Shown here piece by piece: positions 2,249 through 34,634 of a DNA stretch of 48,090 nucleotides. The translations under genes were made by a program, and so were the position numbers. Under the pieces are notes generated by a model that was not told where the DNA came from, ran no database searches, and worked only from the letters and a program-made list of their open reading frames with translations. Numbering within the stretch: the first letter of the stretch is position 1; each line of letters starts with the position of its first letter. The DNA is taken from assembly GCA_947626095.1 (NCBI GenBank), contig CANQQV010000012.1, positions 1 to 48,090 on the forward strand, given 5' to 3'. The DNA is from an uncultured Bacilli bacterium. GTDB lineage: Bacteria > Bacillota_I > Bacilli_A > RF39 > UBA660.

Positions 2249-2253
2249 TAGAA

Positions 2254-3621: not shown

Positions 3622-3634
3622 AAAGGGTGGTTTG

Positions 3635-8691: not shown

Positions 8692-10527
8692 ATGAGCGAT
8701 AGTTATTATGATGAAACAATAGAAAAAGAAAAAAGAAAAATTAATGTTTTGGTACGTGTAATTGATGTAGCTATGGATTACTTAGAACCAAAGAATAAAC
8801 GTAAACAAAATATTATACATTCAGCATGGACAAAAGTTAAATATGCAGAAAACGCTAAAGAAAGAAACGCAAGGTTAGCTACTTTTTTACATGTTTTAAA
8901 TGAGAAAGATGCGTTTAAAGAAAAAGCGACTACTTCACATGAAATAAGTCAGACTTTACGTAATAGACTTAGAGGAACTAATATTGAACTTGATTATAAT
9001 GAATTTAGTACTTATGGTTATGAAATAAGTGGTCAAGTTAAATTGGCAATTGCAAAGTTTGCTAGGGAGTATGTTGATGCTGTTAATCATATAGATAGTT
9101 TGAGACGTCAGAAGGAAAGCCAAAATAAGAGAGAACAAGAAAGGCAACATCAAGAGGAATTAGAAACTTTTAAAGAACAAAGCAAAGCTAGCAGTACGCC
9201 AAAATATGATGATGTTTATGCTAGTGTTACTAGTTATGAGAGTGATAGTAATAAAAATATAAATGTTTTGGTTAATGGTCAAGTTATTTTTCACAATTAT
9301 GATGAATTTGAAGTTCGTGAAAAGAAGGCTATTGAATATTTAGAAAGAAAAATTGCGACAACAAGAGCAAGAAGCTATGGCAAGTTTTTCTTAACGACTG
9401 AAGAAGAAAAAATGTTAAATCGTGTTTTAGGCGAAGGTAAAAGTTTGAGAGTTGGATCTTTATTAGAAGAAGGTTTATCAATGCGAGATGTTTTGTTTCG
9501 CTTACAACAATATGAACGAGATTCAAAGATTCCATTTAAGAAAACTGTTTATCGACCTAATTTAGGTGACGTTTTAATGGTGGCAAGTTCAGTTTATTTA
9601 TATTTACCTGATGAATTATTTACACCACTTTCAAATTCAGATGATCAAGCTAAGTTTGAAACTAGACTTCGTAATATTTCTGGTATGAGCAAAGGTTTAG
9701 AAACTTATGAAAAGATATATGCAATGTATTTAAATTATTTTAATGGATTGCCTGATGAAGAAAAGAATAAGATTAAAACTTCATTTATGACTGAGGGTGC
9801 TTACGAGTATTATAAGAAACAATTTAATATTACTTCATTTGAAATAGTTAGTCCTTCTAAGCTTAAAGTTTTGGTGAATTCAAAAATTAAAGATAAGATG
9901 TTAGAAAGTTTTTCAATGTATATGAGTAGTTATCATTATAATGACTTACTTAGGGCTGTTACTTATATGAGTATTGAAGAAGTTGCTAGTTTGTATTCAG
10001 CAATTAAAGCTATACATATTACATATTCACCAATAGATTATACTAGAGATGTAGATAGTCAAATAGCTGGTCAAGAATGGCTTATTCGTGAATTATTAAA
10101 TAACTTTGTTAAGGTTATTTTAGTTAAAATGAATTTGGGTAATTTATCTAATGAAGAAAAAAATAAGAAAGTTGAATATATAGTTAAAGAAATATTACAT
10201 GAAAATATCAGCTTGGAGATTAGTGGACCACAAGAAGAAAATACTCCTGTAGAAGAAGATACTAAAGAAGATAAAACTGTTAAAAGTAGTGATGGAATGT
10301 ATCATTATGTAGCTGGTGGCAAGGAGCAAAAAACGACTAATAAAGCGATGGCAGCAAGATATAATGCCCAAAATCGTTTTTTTGGGATGAGTAAACTTGA
10401 ACAAACAGCTGCTCGTATGTCAGGTAAATGGGGAAAATTTAAACAAATGTGGGAACAAGCGGCAACTATGGATAAAGAAAAACAAGATGAGGTTGCGCAA
10501 AAGCTTGATTTAATGTTTAGGAGGTAA
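8692..10527 (+). CDS. Hypothetical protein (611 aa, helical/coiled-coil, soluble)
   Basis: Long ORF, RBS AGGAGG, TGTTATAAT upstream; no recognisable motif. Confidence 0.85.
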   Translation: MSDSYYDETIEKEKRKINVLVRVIDVAMDYLEPKNKRKQNIIHSAWTKVKYAENAKERNARLATFLHVLNEKDAFKEKATTSHEISQTLRNRLRGTNIELDYNEFSTYGYEISGQVKLAIAKFAREYVDAVNHIDSLRRQKESQNKREQERQHQEELETFKEQSKASSTPKYDDVYASVTSYESDSNKNINVLVNGQVIFHNYDEFEVREKKAIEYLERKIATTRARSYGKFFLTTEEEKMLNRVLGEGKSLRVGSLLEEGLSMRDVLFRLQQYERDSKIPFKKTVYRPNLGDVLMVASSVYLYLPDELFTPLSNSDDQAKFETRLRNISGMSKGLETYEKIYAMYLNYFNGLPDEEKNKIKTSFMTEGAYEYYKKQFNITSFEIVSPSKLKVLVNSKIKDKMLESFSMYMSSYHYNDLLRAVTYMSIEEVASLYSAIKAIHITYSPIDYTRDVDSQIAGQEWLIRELLNNFVKVILVKMNLGNLSNEEKNKKVEYIVKEILHENISLEISGPQEENTPVEEDTKEDKTVKSSDGMYHYVAGGKEQKTTNKAMAARYNAQNRFFGMSKLEQTAARMSGKWGKFKQMWEQAATMDKEKQDEVAQKLDLMFRR

Positions 10528-10529
10528 GT

Positions 10530-10820
10530 ATGCAAGAAGATTTTAATAGTTATATGGAATTTTTTAAGAGTCAGCCTCTAAAAGAAAAACAAAGTATTGT
10601 TATAGAACAGTTAAAAATGTTAGCTGGTTTAACTAATAATATGTGTAAGGAATTAGATGTTAATAATGAGTTATTGCTAAATAAGGAAATAGTAGATTTA
10701 AATAATGGTGATTATACGGAAGATGACTTTGCTGAAGCTTTAATTGTCTATATTAATTCTATTCAAAATTCATTATGTGATTTTAGTAATAAGTTGTCTG
10801 ATGTTGCTGAAAACATCTAA
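10530..10820 (+). CDS. Hypothetical acidic protein (96 aa)
   Basis: RBS AGGAGGT inside the upstream gene end, 2 nt after its stop. Confidence 0.85.
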   Translation: MQEDFNSYMEFFKSQPLKEKQSIVIEQLKMLAGLTNNMCKELDVNNELLLNKEIVDLNNGDYTEDDFAEALIVYINSIQNSLCDFSNKLSDVAENI

Positions 10821-10870
10821 GTATTTATCATTTATTTGATTATGCTTGAAGAAAAAAGATATTTAAGTTT

Positions 10871-10902
10871 AGATATTCTATATTGATAGAATATCTTTTT
10901 TT
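10871..10902 (+). terminator. Rho-independent terminator
   Basis: AGATATTCTA-6 nt-TAGAATATCT then T run. Confidence 0.7.
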
Positions 10903-10963
10903 GTATTTATTTATTTAAAAAAATATGATAAGATGGTATTGATATAATAAAGAGGTGTTGGTT

Positions 10964-12955
10964 ATGTTTGGTAAGATTAAGTTTATATCTGGTAACGTTG
11001 CCCATGTTGAAACTGTAGCTAAAGCTGAAGAATTAGGAGATTTAATGAATGTTCATGTTGTTTTTGAAGCTCCTGATCAATTAATACTTGGGGAAGTAGA
11101 AGAAGTAACTGATGAAGTTATTAAAATAAGATTTTTAGGTGAATTCCAAAATGGTCGTTATGTATCAGGTGTTATTCGTAAACCGGTTTTATCTAGTACA
11201 ATTAGAACAATTAATGATCAAGAATTAAGAGCAATAGTTGGAGTTTATGATGATACAACGTTTAAAGTTGGTCAAAGTTCTATATATACTGATTATGAAG
11301 TATGTGCTGATATTAATAACTTATTTGCTAATCATATGGCTGTATTTGGTAATACTGGTTCAGGTAAATCATGTGGTGTAGCAAGAATTGTACAAAATAT
11401 TTTTTCTAATCCTAAGTTAATATCATATAATGCTAATATTTTTATTTTTGATGCTTATGGTGAATATAAGACAGCTTTTAGTGGTTTAAATAAATTAAAT
11501 CCTAATTATAGTTATAAATTTATTACAACTAATATTCAAGAAGATACTGATTATGAACTTAAAATACCTTTTCATTTACTTAATTTAGATGATTTAACTA
11601 TTATGTTACAAGCTGATAAACATAGTCAAATACCTATTTTGGAAAGAGCTTTAAAGCTAACAAGAATATTTAGTAAAGATGATGAAGTAGCTGAAAAATA
11701 TAAAAACCATTTAATTGCTAAAGCTTTAATCGCGATTTTATATAGTAATCAGATTACGGCTAATAAAAAGAATGATATTTTTAAAGTACTTGAAGTTTGT
11801 CATACTAAAGATTTTGATTTTGATAGTGTTATTCAAGGTTTAGGTTATACAAGAACTTTGTCTGAATGTTTTGAAATTGATAGTAATGGTAACTTCGGTG
11901 AATCTGTTTTAATTACTGATTATATTTTGGATCATATAGATGAAGCAATGGAAATGACTGAAGAACCAGTTAATGCTTTCTATTCAATGAGAGATTTTTC
12001 TCAAGCTTTAGAGTTTACATTAATTAGTGAAGGTTTCCAAAATAATGAGCAGTTATATGATGATTCAATGTTACTTAAGGTTAGATTAAATTCAATTTTA
12101 AATAGTAAAATTGCTAATATATATAAGAGTGATAATTATATTTCAACAGAAAGTTATATTGCTTCATTAGTAGCTGTTGGTAATAAAAAAGCTCAAGTTA
12201 TTAATATTAACTTAGAGGATATCGATGATACGCAAGCGAAGATTATCGTTAAGATAATAGCAAGAATTTTCTTTGATTTCTGTAAAACAAGAAAACAAAG
12301 AGCGACAATTCCTTTCCATTTGTTTTTGGAGGAAGCGCATAGGTATGTTCAAAAAGATGCCGATGTATTCTTAATTGGTTATAACATATTTGACCGTATT
12401 GCTAAAGAAGGTCGTAAGTATGGCGTACTTTTAAATATTATTTCGCAAAGACCTGTTGAAATATCTGAAACAGTTATTGCCCAATGTAGTAATTTCTTAA
12501 TCTTTAAGATGACACACCCTCGAGATATTGAGTATATTAGAACAATGTTGCCTAATATTTCGGCTGATGTTATTGAAAAACAAAAGATTTTACAACCTGG
12601 TAACTGTGTTGGATTTGGTCAAGCGTTTAAGTTACCAATGGTTATTAAGATGGAAATGCCTAATCCAGCGCCTAACTCTAACTCATGTGATGTAAATAAC
12701 TGTTGGCGTATTCAAGGTAATATTGCAAATTCGGCAGCTAATAATGTACCTAGTGCTCCAACTACGACAGTAGCACCTACTAATGGTCCGACGACAACCT
12801 TAGCACCAACGGCTACGCAAAGTACGGCTAAACCAGATTTAATGAGTCCTAGTCCAATTCAAGTAAATCAGCCAACTGATGCTACCTCAACTGGTTTTAA
12901 TGCTGCTCCGGTTAATGGGGTTGTTAATCCGAATTTTATACCACCAGTTAGTTAA
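10964..12955 (+). CDS. HerA/DUF87-family (FtsK-HerA superfamily) ATPase with N-terminal beta-barrel and P/T/N-rich tail
   Basis: HMAVFGNTGSGKS Walker A, IFDAYGEY, LFLEEAHRY Walker B, IAKEGRKYG, SQRP; likely start ATG 10964. Confidence 0.9.
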   Translation: MFGKIKFISGNVAHVETVAKAEELGDLMNVHVVFEAPDQLILGEVEEVTDEVIKIRFLGEFQNGRYVSGVIRKPVLSSTIRTINDQELRAIVGVYDDTTFKVGQSSIYTDYEVCADINNLFANHMAVFGNTGSGKSCGVARIVQNIFSNPKLISYNANIFIFDAYGEYKTAFSGLNKLNPNYSYKFITTNIQEDTDYELKIPFHLLNLDDLTIMLQADKHSQIPILERALKLTRIFSKDDEVAEKYKNHLIAKALIAILYSNQITANKKNDIFKVLEVCHTKDFDFDSVIQGLGYTRTLSECFEIDSNGNFGESVLITDYILDHIDEAMEMTEEPVNAFYSMRDFSQALEFTLISEGFQNNEQLYDDSMLLKVRLNSILNSKIANIYKSDNYISTESYIASLVAVGNKKAQVININLEDIDDTQAKIIVKIIARIFFDFCKTRKQRATIPFHLFLEEAHRYVQKDADVFLIGYNIFDRIAKEGRKYGVLLNIISQRPVEISETVIAQCSNFLIFKMTHPRDIEYIRTMLPNISADVIEKQKILQPGNCVGFGQAFKLPMVIKMEMPNPAPNSNSCDVNNCWRIQGNIANSAANNVPSAPTTTVAPTNGPTTTLAPTATQSTAKPDLMSPSPIQVNQPTDATSTGFNAAPVNGVVNPNFIPPVS

Positions 12956-12981
12956 GAATCTAATTAGTTAGATTCTTTTTC
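12954..12981 (+). terminator. Rho-independent terminator
   Basis: AAGAATCTAA-TTAG-TTAGATTCTT plus T tract. Confidence 0.8.
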
Positions 12982-13040
12982 TTTGTCAAGAAGAGGTAAA
13001 GAGTATTTTGTTTTAGTATAAGGTATGATATAATTAAATT

Positions 13041-13215
13041 ACTCAAGGATAAATGCTTACTTTTTATTAAAAACCGAGTAAGTGATTATAAGGGAGTCTA
13101 ATTGATTTGTGGTGTTGAAGACCTTGCTTTTTAAGTGTAGGGATCCTAAAGCAAAACATGTGACACCCACCTGTGTGGTGCAGGTTTTTTATTCACTAGT
13201 GAGCATCCCTTGAGT
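13041..13215 (+). ncRNA. ssrS: 6S RNA
   Basis: Paired ends ACTCAAGG/CCTTGAGT, Firmicute 6S motif GACACCCACCTG...GCAGGTT, TGnTATAAT at 13026-13034, ~175 nt, and position upstream of tcdA as in B. subtilis aspS-6S-yrvM-yrvN. Confidence 0.85.
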
Positions 13216-13240
13216 TTTTATTTGGAATCTTGGTGAAGAT

Positions 13241-13939
13241 ATGTTTGAACGTATGAAGTTAATACTTAGTGATGAACAAATAGATAAGTTAGTTAATAGT
13301 AAAATACTTATTGTTGGTGTTGGCGGAGTAGGTGGAGCTTGTTTTGAGGCTTTGGTAAGACTAGGTATTGGAAGAATGGATGTAGTTGATGGTGATGCGT
13401 TTGATGTTAGTAATTTAAATAGACAGATTTTAGCTAATATTAATAACATAGGTCATTCTAAGGCTTTAGAAGCTAAAATGAGAGGCTTAAGTATTAATCC
13501 GAGTATTTATATTAATTCTTATGAAATGTTTTTAAATGAAGCTAATATTGGGCAAATTGATGTATCTTCATATGATTATATTATAGATTGCTGTGATACA
13601 ATGACTACTAAGCTATTATTAATTAAAGAAGCTTTACGTAATAAGAAGAAAATAATTAGTTCGATGGGAACTGGTAATAGATTAGATGCTACTAAATTAG
13701 AAATAAAAAGTATTTGGAAAACAAATAATGATCCAGTAGCTAAAGTAATGCGTAAAATGTTAAGAGATAATAATATAAAAGATAAAATACCAGTATTGTG
13801 TTCGAATGAATTACCTTGTAAAATTCATGAAAGAAGACCTGGTTCAGTAAGCTTAGTACCTAATGTTGCAGGTTTTTATATCGCAAATTATGTATTTAGT
13901 GATATAATAAATAGTGGAAGTGATATTGATGGACGATGA
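13241..13939 (+). CDS. tcdA: ThiF-family tRNA threonylcarbamoyladenosine dehydratase
   Basis: GVGGVGG, SNLNRQ, DYIIDCCD, SSMGTGNRLD, DPVAKVMRK. Confidence 0.9.
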   Translation: MFERMKLILSDEQIDKLVNSKILIVGVGGVGGACFEALVRLGIGRMDVVDGDAFDVSNLNRQILANINNIGHSKALEAKMRGLSINPSIYINSYEMFLNEANIGQIDVSSYDYIIDCCDTMTTKLLLIKEALRNKKKIISSMGTGNRLDATKLEIKSIWKTNNDPVAKVMRKMLRDNNIKDKIPVLCSNELPCKIHERRPGSVSLVPNVAGFYIANYVFSDIINSGSDIDGR

Positions 13940-19705: not shown

Positions 19706-20473
19706 TTAAACCTTTCTTGATTGGATTTCAGCAATTTTTTCAAATACTTCAGCAGCATTAGATTCATTAATTTCAGTGTAACCTAATTCTTTTAAAGCTT
19801 GAATCTTAATTGTATTTAATTGTTGAGTACGAGATAATTTTTCTTCATTTTTTTGTTCAATTTCTTGAACGAAACGTTTATGAGATTCTGCTAACTTACT
19901 ACGAGAAGCACCGCCATTATTATATAGCGTTAAAGCTGAGTATAAAATACCTTCAAAAATAAATTGTTTATCTTCTTGGAATTTATATTCTTCAGGATTA
20001 GTAAAGCCAGTTGTTTTACTCATGTAGCCGAATATATATTTAATTTCAGGAACATTATCTAAAGATTGTAATAGATGATATAGGTATAATATCGCATAAT
20101 AGTTTTCTTCATGGTTATCATTAGTTAATTTTTCTTTTAATAAGTAAGTAATATCACTTAATAGGATTTGTGATTCTTTATTTAAACCTTTAAAATCGAA
20201 TTGACTTTCAAATTCACTAGCATTTTTAACTTCTTGATTTAAACGACTTTCAACACTCATTAAGTAATCGGTCGTGATATTAATTTCATCAATATCTTTA
20301 CTATCACTAATATCTAATAATTTAAATAATAATAATTTCTTTTCTTTTGGCCATTTATTAATATCATTTAGCTCTAAATAGTTATATACCATTTGACGAG
20401 ATACTCCTAAATATTTTGCCAATCTAACTTTGGATATTCCTAATTCTTGAAATAATTCATTTAATTTACGCAT
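19706..20473 (-). CDS. Cro/XRE-like helix-turn-helix protein with long helical C-terminal domain
   Basis: ISKVRLAKYLGVSRQMVYNY HTH at N-terminus. Confidence 0.8.
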   Translation of the reverse strand: MRKLNELFQELGISKVRLAKYLGVSRQMVYNYLELNDINKWPKEKKLLLFKLLDISDSKDIDEINITTDYLMSVESRLNQEVKNASEFESQFDFKGLNKESQILLSDITYLLKEKLTNDNHEENYYAILYLYHLLQSLDNVPEIKYIFGYMSKTTGFTNPEEYKFQEDKQFIFEGILYSALTLYNNGGASRSKLAESHKRFVQEIEQKNEEKLSRTQQLNTIKIQALKELGYTEINESNAAEVFEKIAEIQSRKV

Positions 20474-20492: not shown

Positions 20493-20538
20493 ATGTATTT
20501 TACATCTTCATTATATTGCTATACATTCATTATGTCAA
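20493..20538 (-). promoter_or_regulatory. Consensus sigmaA promoter plus palindromic candidate operator
   Basis: TTGACA(20538-33)-17 bp-TATAAT(20515-10); ATGTA-TTT-TACAT at 20493-20505. Confidence 0.75.
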
Positions 20539-20550
20539 GGAAATAGCAAG

Positions 20551-20578
20551 AAAAAACTAGTTATAAAATAACTAGTTA
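20551..20578 (-). terminator. Terminator of the AAA ATPase operon
   Basis: AACTAGTTAT-loop-ATAACTAGTT with U tract on the minus strand. Confidence 0.75.
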
Positions 20579-22072
20579 AGCGTTTTTAGAGGCATTAATG
20601 GCTCTTTCTTGGCCCCATTTTCTAATTTCGTTTATTTTTTCAGGGTTAGTCTTAGATAAGGAAACGACTTTAGATAATTCTTCAGTAATTAAGTTTTCTG
20701 ATAAAGTTAATTCTTTATTAGCAATTAATTTATAAGCAATTGAACGCATGGTAGCTTCAATATCTGAACTAGCAAAGCCAGTAGTTATAGTGACTAATTT
20801 ATTTAGTAAGTTCTCCCCTAGTTCAACTTTTAAGTATTTGCGGGCATACAACTTTAGAAGTTCTAATCTTTCGTTATTATTTGGTAGATCGACAAAGAAG
20901 ATTTCATCAAAACGACCTTTTCTGACTAATTCTGGAGGTAATGATTCAATACTATTAGCTGTAGCGATGACAAAGACTGGTTTTTGGCATTCTTGAAGCC
21001 AAAATAAGAATTGACCAATCATTTTGGAAGTAACACTAGAGTGGGAATCATTTAAACCTTTTTCGATTTCATCAATCCATAGGACACATGGGGAAACGTA
21101 TTCAGCTGTATCTAAAGCTTGTTTTAATTGTCTTTCTGATTGACCAACGTATTCGCCTTGGACGGTAGCTAAATCAAGATGATATAGTGGAATATTGAAG
21201 ATATTAGCAGCAGCTTTAGAGCATAAACTTTTACCACAACCTGGAACACCTGTAAGTAAGATACCTTTTGGCGATGCTACTCCCCTTTTCTGTAGCTCCT
21301 CTTTTTTAGTTGGATCCATTAAAGTCTTTTTTTCATATAACCATTCTTTTAAAGTATCGAGACCAGCAATTTGGAAATTATCATCAATTGGTACAGACTC
21401 TAAACCAGCGATATCACTAAATAAAGTTTGTTTAGCAAATTTTAATTCTTTTAGATCATCTTTAGTAATTGTACCTTTAACAATTAAAGAGGAAATAATA
21501 TTTTTAATTTCCATTTCACTTAAACCTTGTAAGTACGTAGCAGCATTTTTATAATCATTTTCATCCCAATCAATAGTGATCTGGTTATTATATGGTTTGA
21601 TTGTTTCTTTAATACCTTCTAATATTTCAGTATCAGTTGGGAAATTAAGTTTTAAGCTAACACCTAGTCTTTTGATATTCGGCCATACTTCTTCATTAGT
21701 TATAATGATGATTACACCAGATACTTTTTCCGCTTTTTCGGCAATATTTAATAAGTAACGAGAGACAATTGATGATTCGTTAATATCAGATATATCACTA
21801 ATAATAAAGTTATAGTTTTCTTTGTATTTTAATTCGTTAGATAAGGTGTCTAAAGCACTCATTATTGTTTTATCTTCACTAATAACCGTATTAGTTTCTA
21901 AATCAGTAATACCACTAGACATTTCATATAAACTAAATTGATTATTGGTATTTTTAGCGACTTCACTAATTAATCTTATAATACGATTTTTTTCGATAGT
22001 ATTTAAGATAATTATTGGGATACGAGCTTTTAAGTATCTTGTTAAATATTCTTTTACTTCATTATAATTCAT
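20576..22072 (-). CDS. Ycf46-like AAA+ ATPase (degenerate N-terminal domain plus active C-terminal AAA module)
   Basis: [49 protein letters not shown]; likely ATG 22072. Confidence 0.92.
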
Positions 22073-22508
22073 TATTATCACTCCATTTTATTCGATTATT
22101 ATTTATGATAAGAGCCATAGCTCCACTTTTATCTTCAATATTAGCTTCTTTGATTAAGATTTCATATGTTTTGTCTGTTTCATCTTTGATGGTATTAATT
22201 AGGGTTTGTTGTTCTTCAGGAGTTAAGATGGTAATATCAATCATTTCTTTAAGATATTTTATTTCTTTTTTAAAATTAACTAAGATGATGTCTAAGTAAT
22301 TAATATCATCAAAGATTGTTGTTAAAGCTGATTTAATCTTTTTGACTGATTCACTAAACTTGTAGATGATGACATCACGATATTTTTCACTTAGAAGTTC
22401 TTGTAAATTACTATTTACGGGAGAATTCTTAAGTTTATTTAATAATTCATTATTATAGTTGGGGGTTTTGAGTTTTTTAAAGAGTTCTAAATATTCTTCG
22501 TATGTCAT
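22062..22508 (-). CDS. Hypothetical helical protein (148 aa) in AAA operon
   Basis: Overlaps both neighbours (translational coupling). Confidence 0.8.
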   Translation of the reverse strand: MTYEEYLELFKKLKTPNYNNELLNKLKNSPVNSNLQELLSEKYRDVIIYKFSESVKKIKSALTTIFDDINYLDIILVNFKKEIKYLKEMIDITILTPEEQQTLINTIKDETDKTYEILIKEANIEDKSGAMALIINNNRIKWSDNNEL

Positions 22509-22654
22509 TTGTTACCTCTATTGATCTTTAAAGGTGGTTCAATGGACCATTCAGGAAGATTAGTTATAACTTCTTTATTTTCTTCAACTTTAGTTGGTTC
22601 TTTAGTTTTAGTAATTTGTGATTCTTCTTTGATCTGTTTTATTTGTTCTTCCAT
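22505..22654 (-). CDS. 49-aa protein with LPEWSIEPP motif (missed by ORF track)
   Basis: MEEQIKQIKEESQITKTKEPTKVEENKEVITNLPEWSIEPPLKINRGNK; starts 1 nt after the upstream stop with AGGTGAG RBS; TGA overlaps the next ATG (ATGA). Confidence 0.85.
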   Translation of the reverse strand: MEEQIKQIKEESQITKTKEPTKVEENKEVITNLPEWSIEPPLKINRGNK

Positions 22655-22655
22655 T

Positions 22656-24323
22656 TTACTCACCTACTATAATATTTCTTTCGTTATTACTTGTAACATA
22701 GTTTTTAGTATTTAAATTGTTAATGAAGACTAATAGTTCTTTGTAATGTTCTTCATTTTCCTTTAATTTATTTTGATAATCAACTATTTGCGCCAACTGT
22801 TTTTCTAAGGTTGTTAGATATGAAGTACGTAGTTTATCTTTAGCAATAGTACGAACTTTATTACGATGATTTAATTTATAAAATAAGATTATGTTGCCAA
22901 TTATTATAATGGCAATTAAGATGGTACTTAGTAAACGATTATTTAAGGTAATAAAGATACCAATGATACCGATGATATTAATAATTAGTAAGATAACAAT
23001 TAAATCTTTATCTTCACTATCAAATTCTTTATCTAAGTATAAGTTAAGATCATTTTTGATTTCGTCCATATTGGTACCATCATTAGTTTTAGTTATAAAG
23101 TTGTCTATTTTAAGTGATATTGGTTCATTATGAACGTTTTCTTTATCTTTAGCTAGGGCTTCTAGTAAGAAGTTTTTGATAAGTGAGATAGCAATTTTGA
23201 TTGTTTCATTACTAACTTGGTAGTGTTGACGATAAATAACGATATTAGTTAATAAACTAAATAAATCTTGTTTACTATTATTTACTTGTTCTTCTTTTTG
23301 ATATAGTTCTTCAGCTTGTTCACGATTACCATTACAAGAGATAATTAATTGATTTTTTAAATTGTCATTTTGATATATATGTTCTTTATCTTCGTATTCA
23401 TAGATTAGGTCGCTAAGTATTTCATTAATTTTTTTGTTAGATTTTTCACTATATATTAAATTAGTTAAATGATCTTTAAGACTTGTATAAGTACTTGTAA
23501 TAGCAAGATTATCTTTTAAGATATTAAGGTTTTCACAATTATTTTCTAAGTATGATAATTTAAAGTCATAGGTTTCATATTGACGAATAAAATCTAACCA
23601 TATTTTGATTTGTTTTTCTTTTAATAAAGTTTCACTATTTAATTTTTTTAACCAGTCATTTATTTTAGCAAAGACTAAGTTTTTAGCTTCATCCCCATAT
23701 GCCCCAGTGGCAACTAAATCAAGTATAACAATGAAGTTTTTATCAAGTTCTAGTGGTGATTCGCTTTCAAGATAGTATTGTAACCAACGAAGAGATGTGG
23801 CATCACGATTTAAGTCTAAATTAATTAAAGAAAAGAAAATTGAAGTTTTAGCACTATCTTTTTGTAAAGCATTTAAGACTTCTTTGTTAGTATTTTCTTT
23901 ATCGTTTAAAAGCCAAGAAATTAGTGCGGCTAATGCATTTGATAACCAGTAGTTGGGATTGTGCATGATAATTTCTTCACGTAGATTTTTAAGATATTCA
24001 CGGTTTATTTTGGATGATTTTAAAGCACTTAGAAGTGATTCAGTTGTTCGTCTTACATCGTCGTAGTAACCATATTTCTTTTCAATAATGGCATTATTAT
24101 ACATTATGGCTTGGCGGGCATTAGAAATAATAGTTGTTTCACGGATTTCTTTAACTAAACCTTTAACTTCATCATTTAAGTTTTCAACTTTTTCTTGAAC
24201 ACGATTGACGTCATTATTAACCGTATTAACATGAGCGATAACACCAGTTAGTTCATCAGCTACTGCTCCAAGATTTTTTTCGATTACATCTAAATTAGCT
24301 GCACTTATTGTTAATGCTTCCAT
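22656..24323 (-). CDS. Coiled-coil protein with C-proximal two-helix membrane hairpin
   Basis: N-terminal heptads, KYGYYDDVRR, PNYWL helical region, two adjacent TM segments near residues 445-485; likely ATG 24323. Confidence 0.85.
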   Translation of the reverse strand: MEALTISAANLDVIEKNLGAVADELTGVIAHVNTVNNDVNRVQEKVENLNDEVKGLVKEIRETTIISNARQAIMYNNAIIEKKYGYYDDVRRTTESLLSALKSSKINREYLKNLREEIIMHNPNYWLSNALAALISWLLNDKENTNKEVLNALQKDSAKTSIFFSLINLDLNRDATSLRWLQYYLESESPLELDKNFIVILDLVATGAYGDEAKNLVFAKINDWLKKLNSETLLKEKQIKIWLDFIRQYETYDFKLSYLENNCENLNILKDNLAITSTYTSLKDHLTNLIYSEKSNKKINEILSDLIYEYEDKEHIYQNDNLKNQLIISCNGNREQAEELYQKEEQVNNSKQDLFSLLTNIVIYRQHYQVSNETIKIAISLIKNFLLEALAKDKENVHNEPISLKIDNFITKTNDGTNMDEIKNDLNLYLDKEFDSEDKDLIVILLIINIIGIIGIFITLNNRLLSTILIAIIIIGNIILFYKLNHRNKVRTIAKDKLRTSYLTTLEKQLAQIVDYQNKLKENEEHYKELLVFINNLNTKNYVTSNNERNIIVGE

Positions 24324-24352
24324 CCTAGCCACCTCTACTTTTAATTATAACA

Positions 24353-24922
24353 TTAAATATGAAGAAATGTCATTAAATAACGATGGATATTAGTATTAAA
24401 GATAAATAGAATAAATTCATAGAAGTATAACATACAACTTAAAAGGAGATATTTTTTAATTAATATTTTAATACGATGGCGATCTTTTTTTTGTTTTTTA
24501 AATAAGTATTTACTAATGGTATATGATAAAGTCATTGTAATACGAATTAAGATTAGTTTAAATAAGGTAGGAATTAAATGGTAGATTGTTGTGTATAGTA
24601 AGGAGAATTTAAGGTTATAGGTTTTTAGGGTATTAAAGATAAATCCAGTAGTAAAAGGTTCATAGTAAAGATGAAAAATATTGATTGGTTCAGGAATGAC
24701 GGTTAAACCACAAATTAAGTAAGTACTGGTTTCTTTTATTCTTTTTAAAATGTTGTTAGTAGTAGTTTCTTGTAGTTCCTCTTCTATATTAATTTGGGTG
24801 ATTATTTCTTCTTTAGTAGTTTCACTTTGCGCATTGTAGTAAAAGTAACCGCTTAGTAAGCCGATTAGACTTAAGATAACGATAAAAAGATAAATATACT
24901 TATATTTATTTAGTTTTTTCAT
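24353..24922 (-). CDS. Diverged SpoIIM-like membrane protein
   Basis: 189 aa multi-TM; IGLLSG, ICGLTVIP, FTTGF and C-terminal YFYEF pattern parallel SpoIIM/DUF95. Confidence 0.55.
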   Translation of the reverse strand: MKKLNKYKYIYLFIVILSLIGLLSGYFYYNAQSETTKEEIITQINIEEELQETTTNNILKRIKETSTYLICGLTVIPEPINIFHLYYEPFTTGFIFNTLKTYNLKFSLLYTTIYHLIPTLFKLILIRITMTLSYTISKYLFKKQKKDRHRIKILIKKYLLLSCMLYFYEFILFIFNTNIHRYLMTFLHI

Positions 24923-28593: not shown

Positions 28594-28920
28594 TTAATTG
28601 CTACTTGTTTGTGATTCGATACTTGTAACGAATTCATCAAGTTTTTCTTCGTAACTTGGATCTTCGTCAATACGTGAATCAATATATTCAATGGCGGTTA
28701 AAGTTTTATAAATTTCAGATGTTGGATCAACTTTTTCAACATACTCTGATCCATCTTCTTCAGTTACTTCGAAGAAGACAACATCTGTTTCATCTAGTGA
28801 ATCATCATCTTTAACCCCGATGGCATAATAATAGTTTTTGCCTTCAATTTCTTCTAAGTTATGTAGTAGTAGATAACGTTCCCCTGAATCGATTGTGATA
28901 ACGTTATTTTCTTTAATCAT
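28594..28920 (-). CDS. Acidic DUF1292/YrzB-like protein
   Basis: Acidic beta-rich pattern (GERYLLL..IEGKNYYY..VFFEV); located near a U32 gene as in Bacilli. Confidence 0.55.
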   Translation of the reverse strand: MIKENNVITIDSGERYLLLHNLEEIEGKNYYYAIGVKDDDSLDETDVVFFEVTEEDGSEYVEKVDPTSEIYKTLTAIEYIDSRIDEDPSYEEKLDEFVTSIESQTSSN

Positions 28921-30626
28921 TATAGCTTAGGACCTCCGTTTTCATTTGATATGTAATAGCTACTTAGCATTGTATCTATATCAGCTTTTAAATTTTCTAA
29001 AATTTGTCTTTGTTGTTTTTGTAGTCTAGCAAGTTTTTTATCTAGAGCGTTTTTAACTTTTTCGTAATCAGGTGATGATGGATTTAATTGGCTGATATTT
29101 TCTCTAGCAAGGGCTATTTCAGAATCAATTCTTCTTATTTGTTTATAGTTTTGATTTAATGATTCAAGAATTGCTTGTAAATCTTCACCTAGACTAACCA
29201 TATTTGGATTGTTTGTTGGATCAACTGCTCCGCCACTGTTTGGTCTTGATGGATCAGATGGCGTTGGAGGTACAGGTGGTGTAGCTCCGCCACCGGTGTT
29301 GTTTTGTGGTGTGGTTCTGCCACCATTATTTGGTGGTGGAGTTGGACCATTGCCATTATTATTTGGAGGAGGTGTTTGATTACCGCCGTTATTATTTCTT
29401 GGTGGTGTTGGGCCTCCTTGTGTTTGTTGAGGTTGTTGTTGACTTTGTGTGCGAGTTTGAGTGTTTGTTGGCGTATTACCATTACCATTACTTGGTGCAG
29501 GGGTTGGTGTTGGAGTTGGTGTTCCACCATTATTTTGTCCTTTTGCTGCGGCAATTAATTTTTTTCTTTTACGATTCATTGCCCAACCAAAGACACTTAA
29601 TATTGTTGCTGCTGGTATAGCAGCTGGTAAAATACCTACGGCAAAGCCAGCATATAATCCGACACCGACTAAACCAGTTGTAGCAACTGCATATTTAATT
29701 TTTCTTCGAGTATCATCATTACTCCATGAGCCTTTTACGCCACCAAAGAATGTTTTAAGTGTTTGTAAAGCACCTGGTTTTTGATAATTAAATACTTCTG
29801 CACTTGTTACGCGACGTCTGCCATTATTGGCTTGTTGTTGCTGAGCTGGTTGAGGTTGTCTAGGTTGTTGGGTTTGTGGTCCTTGTTGACCAGGTTGGGT
29901 TTGATTATTAGTTGGAGTTTGATTAGTTTGTTGTGGAGCCGCATTTCTTAAGATTTGACTATAATGGTAGGCATAATATTCAGATTGATTATCTTCCTTA
30001 AGCTCTGGATGTTCTCCTTTGTAATTTGTTTTTTCGTGGGGAAAAGGTTTACGATATTTGCCATCTTCTGTTTGTTCACTTTTTAAACCGTGAACTTTAT
30101 AATATAGTTTAATTTGCTCTTCATATTCTTCTGGTGTCTCGAAAGCAAATTTTGGACGCATAGCTTCATAATTTGTACCTGGAACTTTGCTTCCTTCATG
30201 TTTGAATTGATATATTTGATTTGGGAATTTTATACGTATTGAATGACCTAATATTCTTTCATAATCTGAGGCTTTTTGGGCTAAATCTCTTATTTTTTCG
30301 ATACGAATATTTAATGGTACTTCTTTTTCTTCACCATTAATTGTAATTTTTACCCCAGGAATATCATATAAGTCGTGATCGCTACAAACGTCATTTTCAC
30401 CATATTTAAAGAAAATGTTTTCTAATTCGTTTAAGCAATCATATTCTTCCTTATCTTCTTGTTGAATATATTCCCCTTTGTTTTTGTCTATTTCATATAA
30501 GTTGGCTTGTACACCTGGAATATTTGCTTTTTTACCATCTTCTAAGATAGCTTTTCGACGATTTCTTATAACAGATAGCAATTGGGCATTTAAATCTTCA
30601 CCTTTTACCATTATTTCGTTTTTCAT
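28920..30626 (-). CDS. Hypothetical membrane protein with P/Q/N/G low-complexity linkers and C-terminal coiled coil
   Basis: Q/P tract, two Gly/Ala-rich hydrophobic helices, PTPPPNNGG-type repeats; ATG 30626 or GTG 30635. Confidence 0.85.
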   Translation of the reverse strand: MKNEIMVKGEDLNAQLLSVIRNRRKAILEDGKKANIPGVQANLYEIDKNKGEYIQQEDKEEYDCLNELENIFFKYGENDVCSDHDLYDIPGVKITINGEEKEVPLNIRIEKIRDLAQKASDYERILGHSIRIKFPNQIYQFKHEGSKVPGTNYEAMRPKFAFETPEEYEEQIKLYYKVHGLKSEQTEDGKYRKPFPHEKTNYKGEHPELKEDNQSEYYAYHYSQILRNAAPQQTNQTPTNNQTQPGQQGPQTQQPRQPQPAQQQQANNGRRRVTSAEVFNYQKPGALQTLKTFFGGVKGSWSNDDTRRKIKYAVATTGLVGVGLYAGFAVGILPAAIPAATILSVFGWAMNRKRKKLIAAAKGQNNGGTPTPTPTPAPSNGNGNTPTNTQTRTQSQQQPQQTQGGPTPPRNNNGGNQTPPPNNNGNGPTPPPNNGGRTTPQNNTGGGATPPVPPTPSDPSRPNSGGAVDPTNNPNMVSLGEDLQAILESLNQNYKQIRRIDSEIALARENISQLNPSSPDYEKVKNALDKKLARLQKQQRQILENLKADIDTMLSSYYISNENGGPKL

Positions 30627-30658
30627 AATTTCCACTTCCTTTTTTAATTATAGCATAT

Positions 30659-31999
30659 TTATATTTTATTTTTAAATCCTTTTATCCAATTATAATCTTT
30701 ATTTGGTAAAATTTTGCAAAATACTTCATGAGCATCTTTGTTAAATGTTAGAGTTTTATCTTTTAATTTAATTTCACATTCCGAACCTTTTTTTACGTAA
30801 TATAGAACATCTGATGTTTTAACGGCCATGTATACTACGTTAAAATAAATAAGATTTAAGAAAATATGAAAGTAGCCATTAGCGACCCATGTTAGGTAGC
30901 AGGCGCCTTCATTAGAATAGATACGGTCGTAATTTTCTTTTATTCCTAAAGCATATTTTAGTTCAGTAAAACGATTACGACATTTTTCATCAGTATTTAG
31001 TATTCTTATATAATCATCTTCACTTAAATGAGAATTTATTGATGTAAATATTAGTTTCTTAATATTTAAACAAAGCATAGCATAAATAATAAAATTAACT
31101 AGATTTAGTAAACCTTGATACTCTTTAATAAACATTTTAGTGCCAATAACGATACAAAGAGCAATAAAATAGACTATTATTAGTAATAAGTAGTTATTGA
31201 ATTCTCCTTTGGCTGTTTCTTCTTTATCAATAATTTCAGCTTTGATTTTATGCATATATAATTCAAAGTCGTTTATATGATCTTCTGGTTTATATGTTGT
31301 TAGATTTTCTAATCTTTTTTCTTTGATATATTCATTTATTGTTTCAAGAGAATCTAATGTAAAATAGTATTCTTCTAAGTCGGTTTTTAAGACGATTTCT
31401 TTATTTTGATAATCAACTCTATAGTATCTTATATTGACAAATCTTATTGAAATTATTTCTGGTTTGTCATTTGATTTACAATTTAGTAAAAAAAGTGTAT
31501 CTTGTTTACTATTTGTCCATATATAGTATAATTCACCATGTGTTCCTGATATTTTACGAGTATTATCATTTATATTATATTTGGTTTTTATTTCTTCTAG
31601 AAGATAACTGTAGTAGCCATTTGGACCAGTTACGTATTTTCGTAATTTGGCTTCGTAATCTTCGATTGAATAATAACCATATTTCATTATTTCATTTAGA
31701 TATTTATTAGTTGTGCCTAGGGTTGTTGTTTTAAATATTATCTTTAGAATAATGTTAATGATAATAAATGCTATAAGTGCAAATACTTGGCTTTGAATGT
31801 TAAAATTACCGATGAGAACGATTATTAAAGCTAAGATTAATGGCACAATATTAACAATTATATAATATGGTTTATTATCATGATGAGATGATAAATTAAT
31901 AATATTTCTGTAATATTCTTTACGATAATCTTTAATCTTTGTTTCATATGTAGAAACAAATTTGTTGTTAACCCTTATATTCTTTTTCATATGCTTCAT
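30659..31999 (-). CDS. Membrane protein with internal duplication
   Basis: Two copies of [2 TM + soluble beta-rich domain]. Confidence 0.8.
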   Translation of the reverse strand: MKHMKKNIRVNNKFVSTYETKIKDYRKEYYRNIINLSSHHDNKPYYIIVNIVPLILALIIVLIGNFNIQSQVFALIAFIIINIILKIIFKTTTLGTTNKYLNEIMKYGYYSIEDYEAKLRKYVTGPNGYYSYLLEEIKTKYNINDNTRKISGTHGELYYIWTNSKQDTLFLLNCKSNDKPEIISIRFVNIRYYRVDYQNKEIVLKTDLEEYYFTLDSLETINEYIKEKRLENLTTYKPEDHINDFELYMHKIKAEIIDKEETAKGEFNNYLLLIIVYFIALCIVIGTKMFIKEYQGLLNLVNFIIYAMLCLNIKKLIFTSINSHLSEDDYIRILNTDEKCRNRFTELKYALGIKENYDRIYSNEGACYLTWVANGYFHIFLNLIYFNVVYMAVKTSDVLYYVKKGSECEIKLKDKTLTFNKDAHEVFCKILPNKDYNWIKGFKNKI

Positions 32000-32002
32000 C
32001 CT

Positions 32003-32620
32003 TTATTTTTCGTTAGTATCTGATTTTTTGTCAGGAGCTTTTTCTTTTGTATCAATTACTTTAGTATTACAAATTAGATCGTGTAAACCACGTTCATCAT
32101 CTCTAAAAATCATAAAGCCTAACATAGCGAATAGTAGGAACGTTGAGGCATAAGATACATAATTATTAACTATAAACCATGTATTTTTGTTGCCTAATAA
32201 AAGAACAACTATTGCAATTAATTTAGGAATAAAGTTCGTTACTAATACTGCTCTTAAAATAAATAATGCGGAATCTAAGTTTTTTCCCTTGACTGGAGCT
32301 ACTTTTATATTAAAGATTTTTTTACCAAGTGTTTGGCCATTTAATAAGTAAGCTAAAACACCGAAGTATAGGAATAATAAACCTAGATTGATAATTTGTA
32401 ATGATTTAGTTTTAACTTGCATTTGATATGCGATATCAATCAAGGTATCCTCGTTTATTTCACCTGATCCGTTTTCATAGATTATATTTATATATTCTTG
32501 ACTTATTTTGTCGTATTCTTCCATTTTGGTTTTGGCTGTAATAGCAGAAAAAATTAAGGAAGATATTAGTGATACAAGAAAGATATCGATTACATAAGCC
32601 ATAATTCTTTTAAACTTCAT
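32003..32620 (-). CDS. RDD-family membrane protein
   Basis: KRIMAYVID, GQTLGKKIFNIKV, RGLHDLICNTKV. Confidence 0.93.
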   Translation of the reverse strand: MKFKRIMAYVIDIFLVSLISSLIFSAITAKTKMEEYDKISQEYINIIYENGSGEINEDTLIDIAYQMQVKTKSLQIINLGLLFLYFGVLAYLLNGQTLGKKIFNIKVAPVKGKNLDSALFILRAVLVTNFIPKLIAIVVLLLGNKNTWFIVNNYVSYASTFLLFAMLGFMIFRDDERGLHDLICNTKVIDTKEKAPDKKSDTNEK

Positions 32621-32674
32621 TTCACTCACCTACTTTATATTATAACAGATATCTTTAAGAGAATAAATTAATTT

Positions 32675-33499
32675 TTAAATTTTAGAAGTTGTTGTGAAAG
32701 AATCTAGTATTTTAATTGTATGATTATGTTTATCGATATTATTAACTAAATACATATATTGATTTTCATTTAAAATGATAGCTCTAGTTTTACTACTAAA
32801 AAAATCATTATATAAATTATTTAGATTATCATATGTTTGATAATTAGCTCCATCTATTTTTAAATCTAATACTTTTTTTAAATTGGCAGTATTTTGATTT
32901 TTAATTAAACCGATATTTTTGTTATTGATACTATAAATACTTTGATTAGTATTATTATCGAATGTGATAATGTAATACGTTTTATCTTCATAATAGCTGT
33001 TATTTAAACGATTAATATAACCGTAGACATTATTCATATATATAACACTTGTAAGCATGATAATACTTAGAATAGTTGTAAAGACTTTACCACTTATATA
33101 TTTATTATATGATATGGCAATAAGCATAAAAAATAACATTATAGCAATTATGTAAATATTTATTGTATTTGAAACGATATTTGTTTTTATAAGACCATAA
33201 CTAAAGATAAGAAAGATAAATAAAATAATTGAATTAAAGATGATATGAATATTAGTTTTAAAAATAAAAAATAAATTTTTAATTATTTTAAGAAAAGTAT
33301 TTTGTTTATTATTAGTTTTTTGAGGTTTTACTAATGTTTTTTTTGAAAAAGTGTTATTGCTTTTTTCATTTTTAGCAGTAAGGAAGACATTATATTTTAC
33401 TTGGCTTTTATCAACTAGTTGCGGTTTTTTACTTTGAATTTGTTTGGTGTCTTTATTTTTAATTGCTTTCTTTTTAAGTTTTTTTTGATGATTGCCCAT
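32675..33499 (-). CDS. 3-TM protein with CpsA-accessory/solute-binding-like extracellular domain
   Basis: Basic N-tail, 3 TM, TYYII..NNKNIGL..YQTYDN..RAIILNE. Confidence 0.7.
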   Translation of the reverse strand: MGNHQKKLKKKAIKNKDTKQIQSKKPQLVDKSQVKYNVFLTAKNEKSNNTFSKKTLVKPQKTNNKQNTFLKIIKNLFFIFKTNIHIIFNSIILFIFLIFSYGLIKTNIVSNTINIYIIAIMLFFMLIAISYNKYISGKVFTTILSIIMLTSVIYMNNVYGYINRLNNSYYEDKTYYIITFDNNTNQSIYSINNKNIGLIKNQNTANLKKVLDLKIDGANYQTYDNLNNLYNDFFSSKTRAIILNENQYMYLVNNIDKHNHTIKILDSFTTTSKI

Positions 33500-33517
33500 G
33501 TATTTGCCTCCTTTTTT

Positions 33518-34129
33518 TTAAAAATTATTTAATGTTTTTATTTTACCTTCATATATTGATGTTAATTTACTTTTGTATTTATCATCATTATTTAAATTTT
33601 GATAATCTTCATCACTTATGATAATTGATTGAACTTCGTAGTTTTTTAAAGCGTTTAATAATTCATCACTTGTATCGTAAGTCATATATTCGATATTGGA
33701 AACATTATTTAAGTATTTTTTGACGTTTAAACTATTTTTACTTAACATTCCTATTTTTTTACCTTCTAACTTAGTTAGATTATTATAAGTTGTTGTACTT
33801 TTATGGACGTATACTTCGTAGGTATCATATTTATATTTTTTAGAGTAGATATTTTCTAAATAGGAATATGTATTGTTTAAATTGTTTATATTAAATAGAC
33901 AGGTTATGGTAATAATGATTGTAAGAACAATGCCCATATTATATATAAGATTATGTTTGTTTAAATAACAATATACGATAATTATAAGAGATATTAGGAA
34001 GATAATACTGATAAGAATGATGAGAAAAGTTGGAATGTTTTTGATTGTTATGAAGCCGACTAAAAGGGTTATGTATGAAAAAAGGCAAATGTTAATTAAT
34101 ATGGCATTTAAAATAAATTTTTTTAGCAT
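33518..34129 (-). CDS. 3-TM protein with CpsA-accessory/solute-binding-like domain (paralog of neighbour)
   Basis: TYEVYV..LEGKKIGM..YMTYDT..LLNALKNYEVQSIIISDE. Confidence 0.7.
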   Translation of the reverse strand: MLKKFILNAILINICLFSYITLLVGFITIKNIPTFLIILISIIFLISLIIIVYCYLNKHNLIYNMGIVLTIIITITCLFNINNLNNTYSYLENIYSKKYKYDTYEVYVHKSTTTYNNLTKLEGKKIGMLSKNSLNVKKYLNNVSNIEYMTYDTSDELLNALKNYEVQSIIISDEDYQNLNNDDKYKSKLTSIYEGKIKTLNNF

Positions 34130-34214
34130 AACAATCCCCCTTTTTTATGTATTTGATATCTTAATATAAAATGCTTAAAAAAGCAAATTTTTCATAAAAA
34201 AAAGAGCATAGCTC

Positions 34215-34634
34215 TTATTTATTTTGTAACATTTTTAATAAATCAATTTTAAACATATCTTTAGAAGCATTTTTCTTAGAAATCATTATTCCTTTATAAG
34301 TTGTTAATTCAGATTGATGTCCTTCTAAAAGAATATCAGATGGTGTAATAGTATTTAACATAATAGTTTGTTCTTTAATATATACGGTATATATTAATTT
34401 TACATCACCATGAACTTGTCTGAACATACTATCACTAGGAAGTTTTAGCTCATAAGTTTCAGTACCTGCTTTTTTATTTTGACTTGTTAATTCACCAACA
34501 AATTTACCATTTCTTAATGCTGGATAGTATTCGAAGTTTAATTTTTTATAAGCAAGCATGTTATATTTTTTTAAAGCTCTTTCTAGTTTTTTAAATTCGT
34601 TTTCGTTAATGTAATCTAAAACATATCCTTTCAT
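34215..34634 (-). CDS. Hypothetical protein, possible RelE/ParE-like fold
   Basis: 139 aa, own promoter and terminator; pattern YVLDY..FKKL..YELKL..DVKLIYTV..TIML. Confidence 0.75.
   Translation of the reverse strand: MKGYVLDYINENEFKKLERALKKYNMLAYKKLNFEYYPALRNGKFVGELTSQNKKAGTETYELKLPSDSMFRQVHGDVKLIYTVYIKEQTIMLNTITPSDILLEGHQSELTTYKGIMISKKNASKDMFKIDLLKMLQNK

Follow-up and report, generated by a model that had tools for sequence, protein, structure and literature searches.

A reduced four-gene form of an unnamed, widely transferred AAA+ ATPase module with a possible defense-like role in an uncultured Bacilli bacterium

In the cyclic oligonucleotide-based antiphage signaling systems (CBASS), the TRIP13/HORMA pair provides an example of regulation by an AAA+ remodeler within an immune operon, and the anti-phage system IetAS reportedly consists of the AAA+ ATPase IetA and the subtilase IetS. 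ClpX is said to recognize a MuA-type C-terminal tag, C-motif 2 (RRKKAI). In this study, we analyzed a stretch of 48,090 nucleotides (nt) from an uncultured Bacilli bacterium (GTDB lineage Bacteria; Bacillota_I; Bacilli_A; RF39; UBA660; GenBank assembly GCA_947626095.1, contig CANQQV010000012.1, positions 1-48,090, forward strand), which is referred to below as the window, and focused on a locus of four adjacent genes, designated A, B, C, and D, the last of which encodes an AAA+ ATPase. We consider it very probable that A-B-C-D form a single operon belonging to an unnamed, widely transferred module. The best overall explanation, held at somewhat below even confidence, is that the locus represents a reduced form of a mobile module encoding a membrane-tethered AAA+ remodeling machine with a defense-like role.

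All four genes are encoded on the minus strand, with A at 22656..24323 (555 amino acids [aa] from an ATG), B at 22505..22654 (49 aa), C at 22062..22508 (148 aa), and D at 20576..22072 (498 aa). Their start codons were chosen by alignment to relatives; for A, a longer GVG-start open reading frame (ORF) of 558 aa, beginning at 24332, is the alternative. The tight coupling of the four ORFs described in the first-pass annotation of this DNA was confirmed at these coordinates: the stop codon of A (TAA) is separated from the ATG of B by 1 nt, the stop codon of B (TGA) shares bases with the ATG of C (ATGA), and the ATG of D is located 11 nt within C. GGAG/AGGTG-like sites are present 5′ of every start codon. 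A promoter-like site (ATGACA-18-TATAAT with an upstream TG, 24344..24373, minus strand), which matches the consensus at 11 of 12 positions, lies within the 3′ end of the adjoining SpoIIM-like gene, about 20 nt 5′ of the ribosome-binding site of A. Consensus promoter-like sites were not enriched across this AT-rich region, as 54 were found compared with the 50.2 expected from shuffled sequence. The operon is closed, as had been proposed, by an intrinsic-terminator-like hairpin with a T-run (20551..20577, minus strand), which follows directly after the stop codon of D and has a 10-bp AT-rich stem and a 3-nt loop. Its energy was −8.2 kcal/mol (z = −3.4), and 1 of 200 shuffles was as stable. Because it contains fewer than 3 G-C pairs, this hairpin was not listed in an automated terminator scan. 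The five sequencing runs listed as containing this DNA were all DNA runs from gut metagenomes, with no RNA run among them.

The distribution of the module was followed from the genus outward. Within the genus, for which the label "Candidatus Coprovivens" was taken from the source names of relatives, A was present in 14 of 24 other genomes, while it was detected in none of the 16 relatives drawn from other families. All eight loci retrieved from further species of the genus showed A-B-C-D in synteny between the same neighbors. Among five A-negative genomes of the genus, four contained HTH255, the gene located 3′ of the module in the window, and at all four sites that could be viewed (G002, G012, G019, and G022) the SpoIIM-like gene abuts HTH255 with no trace of A-D. 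The module is therefore a 3.9-kb presence/absence block. A word-indexed search made A appear restricted to this genus. When a profile of A was searched against 1.84 billion representatives, it matched 710 cluster representatives at E-values ≤1e-3 and 332 at E-values ≤1e-30, nearly all of them 550-620 aa and aligned end to end, from sources that included metagenome-assembled genomes (MAGs) of Bacilli and Cloacimonadota. In an even sample of the phylum, full-length A was found in 6 of 399 genomes (G000, three genera of the same family, and two other families), and in all five non-self genomes the order A-B-C-D was kept with differing flanks. Another 22 weak, partial matches to the transmembrane (TM) and coiled-coil part of A in this sample (E-values of 3e-6 to 9e-4) were rejected as short and compositional.

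A scan of 185,579 species genomes yielded 196 confirmed relatives, and 80 loci were kept. These came from Burkholderiales (Paraburkholderia, Variovorax, Cupriavidus, Achromobacter, Comamonas, and Noviherbaspirillum), other Gram-negatives (Stenotrophomonas, Moraxella, and Desulfovibrio), Bacillota (Paenibacillus, Cohnella, and Planomicrobium), Bacteroidota (Flavobacterium, Sphingobacterium, and Chitinophaga), and also from Cloacimonadota, Vulcanimicrobiota, and Thermoanaerobaculia. In 73 of the 80 loci, A was followed at a distance of about 750 nt by a homolog of D in the same orientation, and in the other seven the contig ended first. These homologs include the N-terminal domain of D, with E-values of 1e-47 to 1e-59 for residues 1-250. 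In a hidden Markov model scan of 96 loci, A was detected in 94, C in 91, D in 89, and a fifth gene, E, which is described below, in 82. The first-pass annotation had named a failure of the genes to co-occur elsewhere as grounds for abandoning the idea of a module; they were instead found together, in the same order, across phyla.

The module is also carried by mobile elements. Two plasmids of Komagataeibacter nataicola, of 26 and 38 kb, contain it near IS3 and integrase genes and two toxin-antitoxin pairs; in them E, A, B, and C are annotated as "hypothetical protein" and D as "AAA family ATPase". A 643-kb Comamonas plasmid and a Fusobacterium record contained further copies, and in the 14-kb Streptococcus satellite phage Javan368 the module forms the last 4.6 kb as terminal cargo. 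The identities to a proteobacterial-type query did not follow taxonomy, with values of 67% for a Desulfovibrio MAG, 58% for a Peptococcaceae MAG, and 46-51% for Paenibacillus. These sequence comparisons indicate that the module is horizontally mobile and moves as a unit between phyla.

The motor of the module, D, comprises a module-specific N-terminal domain (N-domain, about residues 1-229), one AAA+ domain of the classical clade, and a conserved C-terminal helix. The match to PF00004 had an E-value of 2.5e-29 and a score of 102.8 bits, compared with a gathering cutoff of 21.2. On the minus strand, the Walker A motif (GVPGCGKS) is encoded at 21227-21250, the pore loop (YVG) at 21140-21151, the Walker B motif (VLWIDEIE) at 21062-21085, sensor-1 (ATAN) at 20954-20965, and the arginine fingers (RKGRFD) at 20906-20923. 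Walker A, Walker B, the pore-loop tyrosine, the sensor-1 asparagine, and both arginine fingers of the second region of homology (SRH) were invariant in an alignment of 15 sequences from across phyla, so the earlier assignment of D to the classical clade holds. The closest solved structures to its AAA domain were the D2 ring of VAT (2.9e-52), followed by the D2 ring of p97/Cdc48 (about 1e-43). D is thus predicted to be a catalytically intact, substrate-threading AAA+ unfoldase of the classical clade.

The N-domain of D was well conserved in the same alignment, with a mean column identity of 68%, and a PDB profile search with it retrieved no credible chain. Compared by hhalign, as a possible degenerate D1-like AAA domain, with the AAA domain of D itself, it gave a weak match over 101 columns of the sensor-1/lid region (probability 2.3%, E-value 0.02), and Walker-B-like and sensor-1-like strands were recognized by eye. 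No fused or longer forms of the N-domain were recovered in the search, which is weak evidence. Neither a TM segment nor a protease domain was detected in D in the Pfam scan. Over its full length, D matched phrog_8638, a family of unknown function (1.5e-84); when its N-domain was compared with 50,697 phage records by tblastn, only the satellite Javan368 was retrieved. More distant viral D-like ATPases therefore seem to exist.

Compared with described AAA+ systems, D is nearest to Cdc48, p97, and VAT, since its AAA domain resembles their D2 ring and contains the Walker A and B motifs, the YVG pore loop, sensor-1, and the SRH arginines. It differs from these proteins, which have tandem D1 and D2 domains behind a double-psi-barrel N-domain, in having a single recognizable AAA domain (TIGR01243 score of 116.6 vs. 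a cutoff of 802.65) and an N-domain unlike any PDB chain, and no ubiquitin-like system is encoded near the module. FtsH has N-terminal TM segments and a C-terminal M41 zinc protease domain; D scored 82.8 with TIGR01241 (cutoff 600) and gave no Peptidase_M41 match. IetA was the best PADLOC match of D (6e-28), and both belong to accessory systems built around a classical AAA+ ATPase; however, the match was limited to residues 258-491 of D, the NF042959 (IteA) score was 66.5 against a cutoff of 510, there is no subtilase in the operon, and IetAS contains nothing equivalent to A, B, C, or E. The resemblance to TRIP13/HORMA of CBASS lies in the concept of an AAA+ remodeler that resets or restrains a sensor or effector, whereas TRIP13 models matched D only at about 3e-3 and no HORMA protein, cyclase, or nucleotide-activated effector was found. 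By analogy, the module may work like the Cdc48-cofactor, Vps4-ESCRT-III, IetAS, and TRIP13-HORMA systems without belonging to any of them.

Neither A, B, and C nor E could be assigned to a Pfam, NCBIfam, PADLOC, or PHROG family, using the versions from the window and from Paenibacillus, Paraburkholderia, and Flavobacterium, and in PADLOC only the generic AAA part of D was matched. The first-pass annotation knew of no assigned function for the set, and no characterized system matched it in Pfam, NCBIfam, PADLOC, PHROGs, PDB, or the literature, in which the listings and the beginnings of abstracts contained no description of the genes. Passages of the DefensePredictor paper (PMC13092281) described no matching system, and its figures and supplements could hold one.

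The AlphaFold2 model of A was all-helical, with a mean predicted local distance difference test (pLDDT) value of 82.8. It begins with a long helical hairpin modeled at low confidence (pLDDT 40-62), which leads into a core of helical repeats and then a beta hairpin (residues 405-416); a TM hairpin and a long C-terminal helix complete the chain. The TM hairpin (residues 441-460 and 465-482, joined by a 4-residue loop; 22878..23003, minus strand) is flanked by acidic residues on its N side and basic residues on its C side. Its earlier prediction was borne out by a hydrophobic stretch of at least 34 residues at the equivalent place in 83 of 94 relatives. A has no signal peptide and is most likely attached at the inner face of the membrane. 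A TPR-like stretch of three repeats (residues 88-215 in the numbering of the 558-aa ORF; 23688..24071, minus strand) coincides with the best-conserved motifs of the family, PxYWL, KTSLFF, and WLxxYL, and no enzymatic motif stood out among the invariant residues of A. In the window, A ends in the tail ERNIIVGE, of which R and I are invariant within the genus. In fold searches at E-values ≤1e-3, the A model matched nothing in the PDB with Foldseek and no BFVD viral structure, the BFVD search giving weaker matches to long SMC/Rad50-type coiled-coil proteins only, and all ESM Atlas clusters matching A were labeled "hypothetical protein".

The 49-aa peptide B, which had been listed as a gene on the basis of the window, proved to be genuine: it was found in all eight genus loci and all five more distant Bacilli loci, and its C-terminal motif LPEWSIEPPLKINRG (22514-22558, minus strand) is conserved across phyla. 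The consensus is [FL]PxW[DNS][IL]xP(P)xx-hydrophobic-hydrophobic-[RK][RK], represented by FPEWDLLPATPFVRRVK in Paraburkholderia and by FPDWDIIPPTQFINPRIK in Flavobacterium. An ORF 5′ of D ends in this motif in 70 of 73 loci from other phyla, although one of these appears to be spurious. In-frame B-A fusions with B at the C-terminus of A were found in G005/L018 (598 aa), P0253, and P0383, and B is therefore considered to act as an extension of A. A variant of B with 102 aa, encoded in a Bacilli genome (L049:9651-9959, G420), carries an N-terminal CxxC...CxxC zinc-ribbon-like stretch before the usual motif. The B motif was unrecognizable in three proteobacterial or Desulfovibrio loci (L056, L057, and L059), in which an ORF of about 360-380 aa replaces C, or additional DNA lies between A and D; these may represent a variant architecture.

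C was modeled by AlphaFold2 as a compact helical bundle (pLDDT 92.9), for which Foldseek retrieved nothing at E-values ≤1e-3. In the lineage of the window, C lacks the linker and the RRxIL tail found in most relatives. When the N-domain of D, C, and B as partner were subjected to complex prediction, the score was 0.00 compared with a mark of 0.32, which speaks neither for nor against binding, and B as a partner in such runs had pLDDT values under 50 and a low-confidence fold. B and C may act as adaptors, as proposed in the first-pass annotation.

Clustering of the ORFs from the 80 loci revealed E (about 160 aa) as a fifth conserved gene. It is located immediately 5′ of A in 67 loci and immediately 3′ of D in two Bacilli (G420 and G289) and in the Streptococcus satellite. 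The full module thus has the order E-A-B-C-D or A-B-C-D-E, and the window contains a reduced, E-less four-gene form. Neither a six-frame translation of the window genome, which is 91% complete, nor any locus of its family contained E. The residues C91, H100, and H111, as well as D103 and E138, are invariant in E, and its N-terminus reads M-x-R-x-I-L in 59 of 68 sequences. It matched no family in the databases named above, its profile found nothing in the PDB at E-values ≤10, and in the ESM Atlas nothing exceeded 0.76.

In the E-bearing form, A, C, and D each end in a basic-hydrophobic tail that follows a low-complexity linker, as in RRRNILI, RRRVLF, RRAVLA, and TRKVLV. The pattern [RK]x[IVLM][IVLMF] occurred within the last 10 residues of A in 62/67, of C in 52/59, and of D in 60/65 sequences, compared with 37 of the 613 unrelated ORFs in these loci. 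A ribosome-binding-site artifact was considered as the origin of these tails and rejected, because the arginine codons are mixed (CGC, CGT, CGA, CGG, and AGA) and the last gene, D, is tailed as well. E and the D tail were both present in 75 loci and both absent from 12, while two loci had E only and none had the tail only. The A tail and the B motif persist in the variant of the window, from which E and the C and D tails have been lost. The five-gene parent module, the tails shared by A, C, and D, and the B motif had all been missed by the first-pass annotation.

Short linear motifs on flexible tails of partner proteins echo the cofactor motifs of p97 and C-terminal tail docking, whereas a C-terminal tail of the R-x-hydrophobic-hydrophobic type is unlike MIM1 or MIM2. 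We take the tails of A, C, and D to resemble the MuA-type class of ClpX tags, which are basic and then hydrophobic at the extreme C-terminus. The reader of the tails could be D, the host ClpX, the TPR-like domain of A, or E.

As a working scheme, the D ring would be assembled at the membrane on A and would remodel or unfold A or A-C assemblies, gripping its partners through tethered peptides, namely the B motif and the R-x-hydrophobic-hydrophobic tails. In full systems, D would also engage C, and in the E-bearing form the D tail, whose occurrence tracks that of E, probably docks onto E. A membrane-active A would be restrained or reset by the ATPase, and its release might disturb the membrane through its hairpin. 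This specific tag-and-remodel mechanism is, in our estimate, rather unlikely to be correct as drawn. The idea that the module founds a new class of membrane-anchored immune or conflict systems, in which a Cdc48-like unfoldase is wired by a shared C-terminal tag and a proline-tryptophan peptide and A, released or assembled by the ATPase on infection, breaches the membrane, is a shade less likely still. By analogy, such a class would be the prokaryotic counterpart of p97-cofactor and Vps4-MIM logic, with the window as a naturally minimized four-gene version.

A link to defense was examined in 30 diverse loci by surveying the five ORFs closest to the module, 141 in total. Clear defense genes were found in 5 of the 30 loci, with one locus each carrying Kiwa KwaA and KwaB (2.3e-53 and 1.3e-105), AbiD (1.7e-63), a type IV Mrr enzyme (3e-82), PD-Lambda-1 (5.4e-78), and a PDC-S37/Hhe-like helicase-nuclease (2.7e-101). 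This rate is probably several-fold above chance, in a small sample. About six further loci had weaker or mobile-element matches, including CHAT, WYL with an integrase, RES, the Cpta toxin, transposases, and DUF4062. The module appears to be an accessory system of mobile elements, for which anti-phage defense or abortive infection is the most likely function; a role in defense or inter-element conflict as such is a reasonable possibility that we place a little short of an even chance. The first-pass proposal of a membrane-remodeling, pore-forming, or defense system was therefore upheld in part: mobility and neighbors favor the defense-like role, while Pfam and fold searches gave no link to ESCRT-III/PspA, dynamin, or alpha-pore-forming toxins (ClyA/Hbl/Yax type).

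Several observations weigh against a mobile, defense-like remodeling machine. The copies in the genus always occupy one chromosomal site among housekeeping genes, a pattern equally expected if the module was inherited vertically and then lost in some genomes. No relative was recovered from IMG/VR viral contigs in two scans, each with two short peptide patterns, and only 1 of 50,697 phage records contained the module, so that phages do not typically carry it. Most flanking genes are ordinary metabolic, transport, or regulatory ones. In PADLOC-DB v2.0.0, which lacks systems described after 2023, A and B matched no families and C gave one weak match (HEC-02B, E-value 0.0021). The TPR-like match of A lies under the noise bar for helical repeats. 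Because A has no recognizable enzymatic or toxin domain, the effector step of the scheme is a guess. All 12 loci without E and the D tail belong to one lineage, the family of the window, and the association between the two features consequently counts as a single evolutionary event. Finally, since the tails of C and D are absent, a tail mechanism in the window would be limited to A and B.

Of the other explanations, a module for membrane-protein quality control or envelope stress, in which D extracts damaged or mislocalized proteins in the manner of Msp1 or FtsH with A as the membrane adaptor and B and C as regulators, is unlikely but comes closest. It would suit a threading ATPase of the FtsH/Msp1/Cdc48 clade, a membrane-anchored A, and an operon situated between a SpoIIM-like protein with MscL and housekeeping genes. 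A core factor would, however, be expected to persist, and the spread of the module is patchy at the level of both phylum (6/399) and genus (14/24), with clean empty sites in related species and carriage by plasmids and a phage satellite; moreover, D itself has neither a protease domain nor a TM segment. Slightly less likely is a two-part AAA+ protease in the five-gene form, with E as a small peptidase or catalytic partner on which the D tail docks as proteasomal ATPase tails do on the 20S particle, and with A, B, and C as membrane-bound substrates or adaptors; the window variant would then have lost its catalytic partner and kept unfolding only. The agreement between E and the D tail in 87 of 89 loci, the invariant cysteine, histidines, D103, and E138 of E, and its position directly before A or directly after D are what such a protease would predict. 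Against this stand the missing family assignment of E in Pfam, NCBIfam, PHROG, PDB, and the Atlas, the origin of the correlation in a single lineage, and the persistence of the module without E in a whole bacterial family, because of which E is not essential to the core.

We regard two further possibilities as improbable. The first-pass annotation proposed a fold comparison with ESCRT-III and PspA, and a counterpart of these systems would have A or C polymerizing on the membrane and D disassembling the polymer via MIM-like C-terminal motifs. The module does share with Vps4/CdvC-ESCRT-III a classical-clade AAA+ ATPase, membrane association, and small helical partners, several of which end in a conserved short peptide after a flexible linker; A also starts with a long helical hairpin, and D matched the CdvC model NF041006 at 1.1e-24 over its AAA part. 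However, the CdvC score of 87 is far from the cutoff of 650, D has no MIT match, A and C have no Snf7 or PspA_IM30 match at E-values ≤0.1, and the N-terminal hairpin of A falls in the low-confidence part of its model. Among the 50 matches listed in wider fold searches, those of A were generic helical or TPR-like and those of C generic helical, and no ESCRT-III, PspA, or Vipp1 chain was included, although absence from such a list does not exclude a family. As for a dynamin-like protein, which would carry a large GTPase domain, no GTPase or dynamin match was found in A-D with Pfam. An addiction or competition module similar to toxin-antitoxin pairs, with A as a membrane-damaging toxin held by D and a stabilizing effect on plasmids or satellites, has an equally small chance of being correct. 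The location on small, non-mobilizable plasmids beside RelE/ParE and HicAB pairs, the RES and Cpta toxin genes near the module in two loci, and the TM hairpin of A are in line with it, while five genes and about 4 kb are large for an addiction module, the copies are mostly chromosomal, and the toxicity of A is without support.

Four of the five module proteins have no family, name, or structure across at least six phyla, and the fifth is a textbook unfolding motor. If the module does act in phage defense, an unfoldase-driven, membrane-based mechanism would be added to bacterial immunity. The shared tail motif would give a simple grammar of client choice by a bacterial AAA+ ring. With neither E nor the C and D tails, the version in the window delimits a minimal core. 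Should quality control or stress prove to be its function instead, the module would still represent a new bacterial pathway similar to Msp1 or Cdc48.

The neighbors of the module in the window are the SpoIIM-like membrane protein with MscL on one side and housekeeping genes on the other. The SpoIIM-like gene (24353-24922, minus strand), which lies directly 5′ of the module, matched PF01944 weakly, with 25.5 bits compared with a cutoff of 26.9; two distant species of the genus (L014 and L015) have a 61-aa ORF in its place. HTH255 (19706-20473, minus strand) encodes 255 aa with an N-terminal helix-turn-helix, and the remainder of the protein has no family. It is 81-98% identical across the genus, a conservation above that of every module gene. 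It was considered as a member of the module and excluded, because it has its own perfect promoter (TTGACA-17-TATAAT at 20538..20510), is retained at the module-free sites, and does not flank the module in other families.

Elsewhere in the window, the region 8692-13939 (plus strand) encodes a 611-aa ORF without a Pfam match, a HerA-like DUF87 ATPase (666 aa, 1.7e-24), and a ThiF-family protein (232 aa), which may constitute a second accessory or defense-like set. A 2440-aa ORF at 36098-43420 (minus strand) had no Pfam match at E-values ≤1e-6. Seven ORFs (108, 571, 446, 208, 274, 203, and 139 aa) are located at 28594-34634 (minus strand), and a Pfam match was obtained for one of them only (RDD family). 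The local GC content peaks at 0.393 at 29-30 kb, compared with about 0.27 elsewhere. At 2245-5395 (plus strand), tandem genes for class II (D/K/N-type) aminoacyl-tRNA synthetases overlap by 44 nt and adjoin the genes for histidyl-tRNA synthetase (HisRS) and GatA/GatB.

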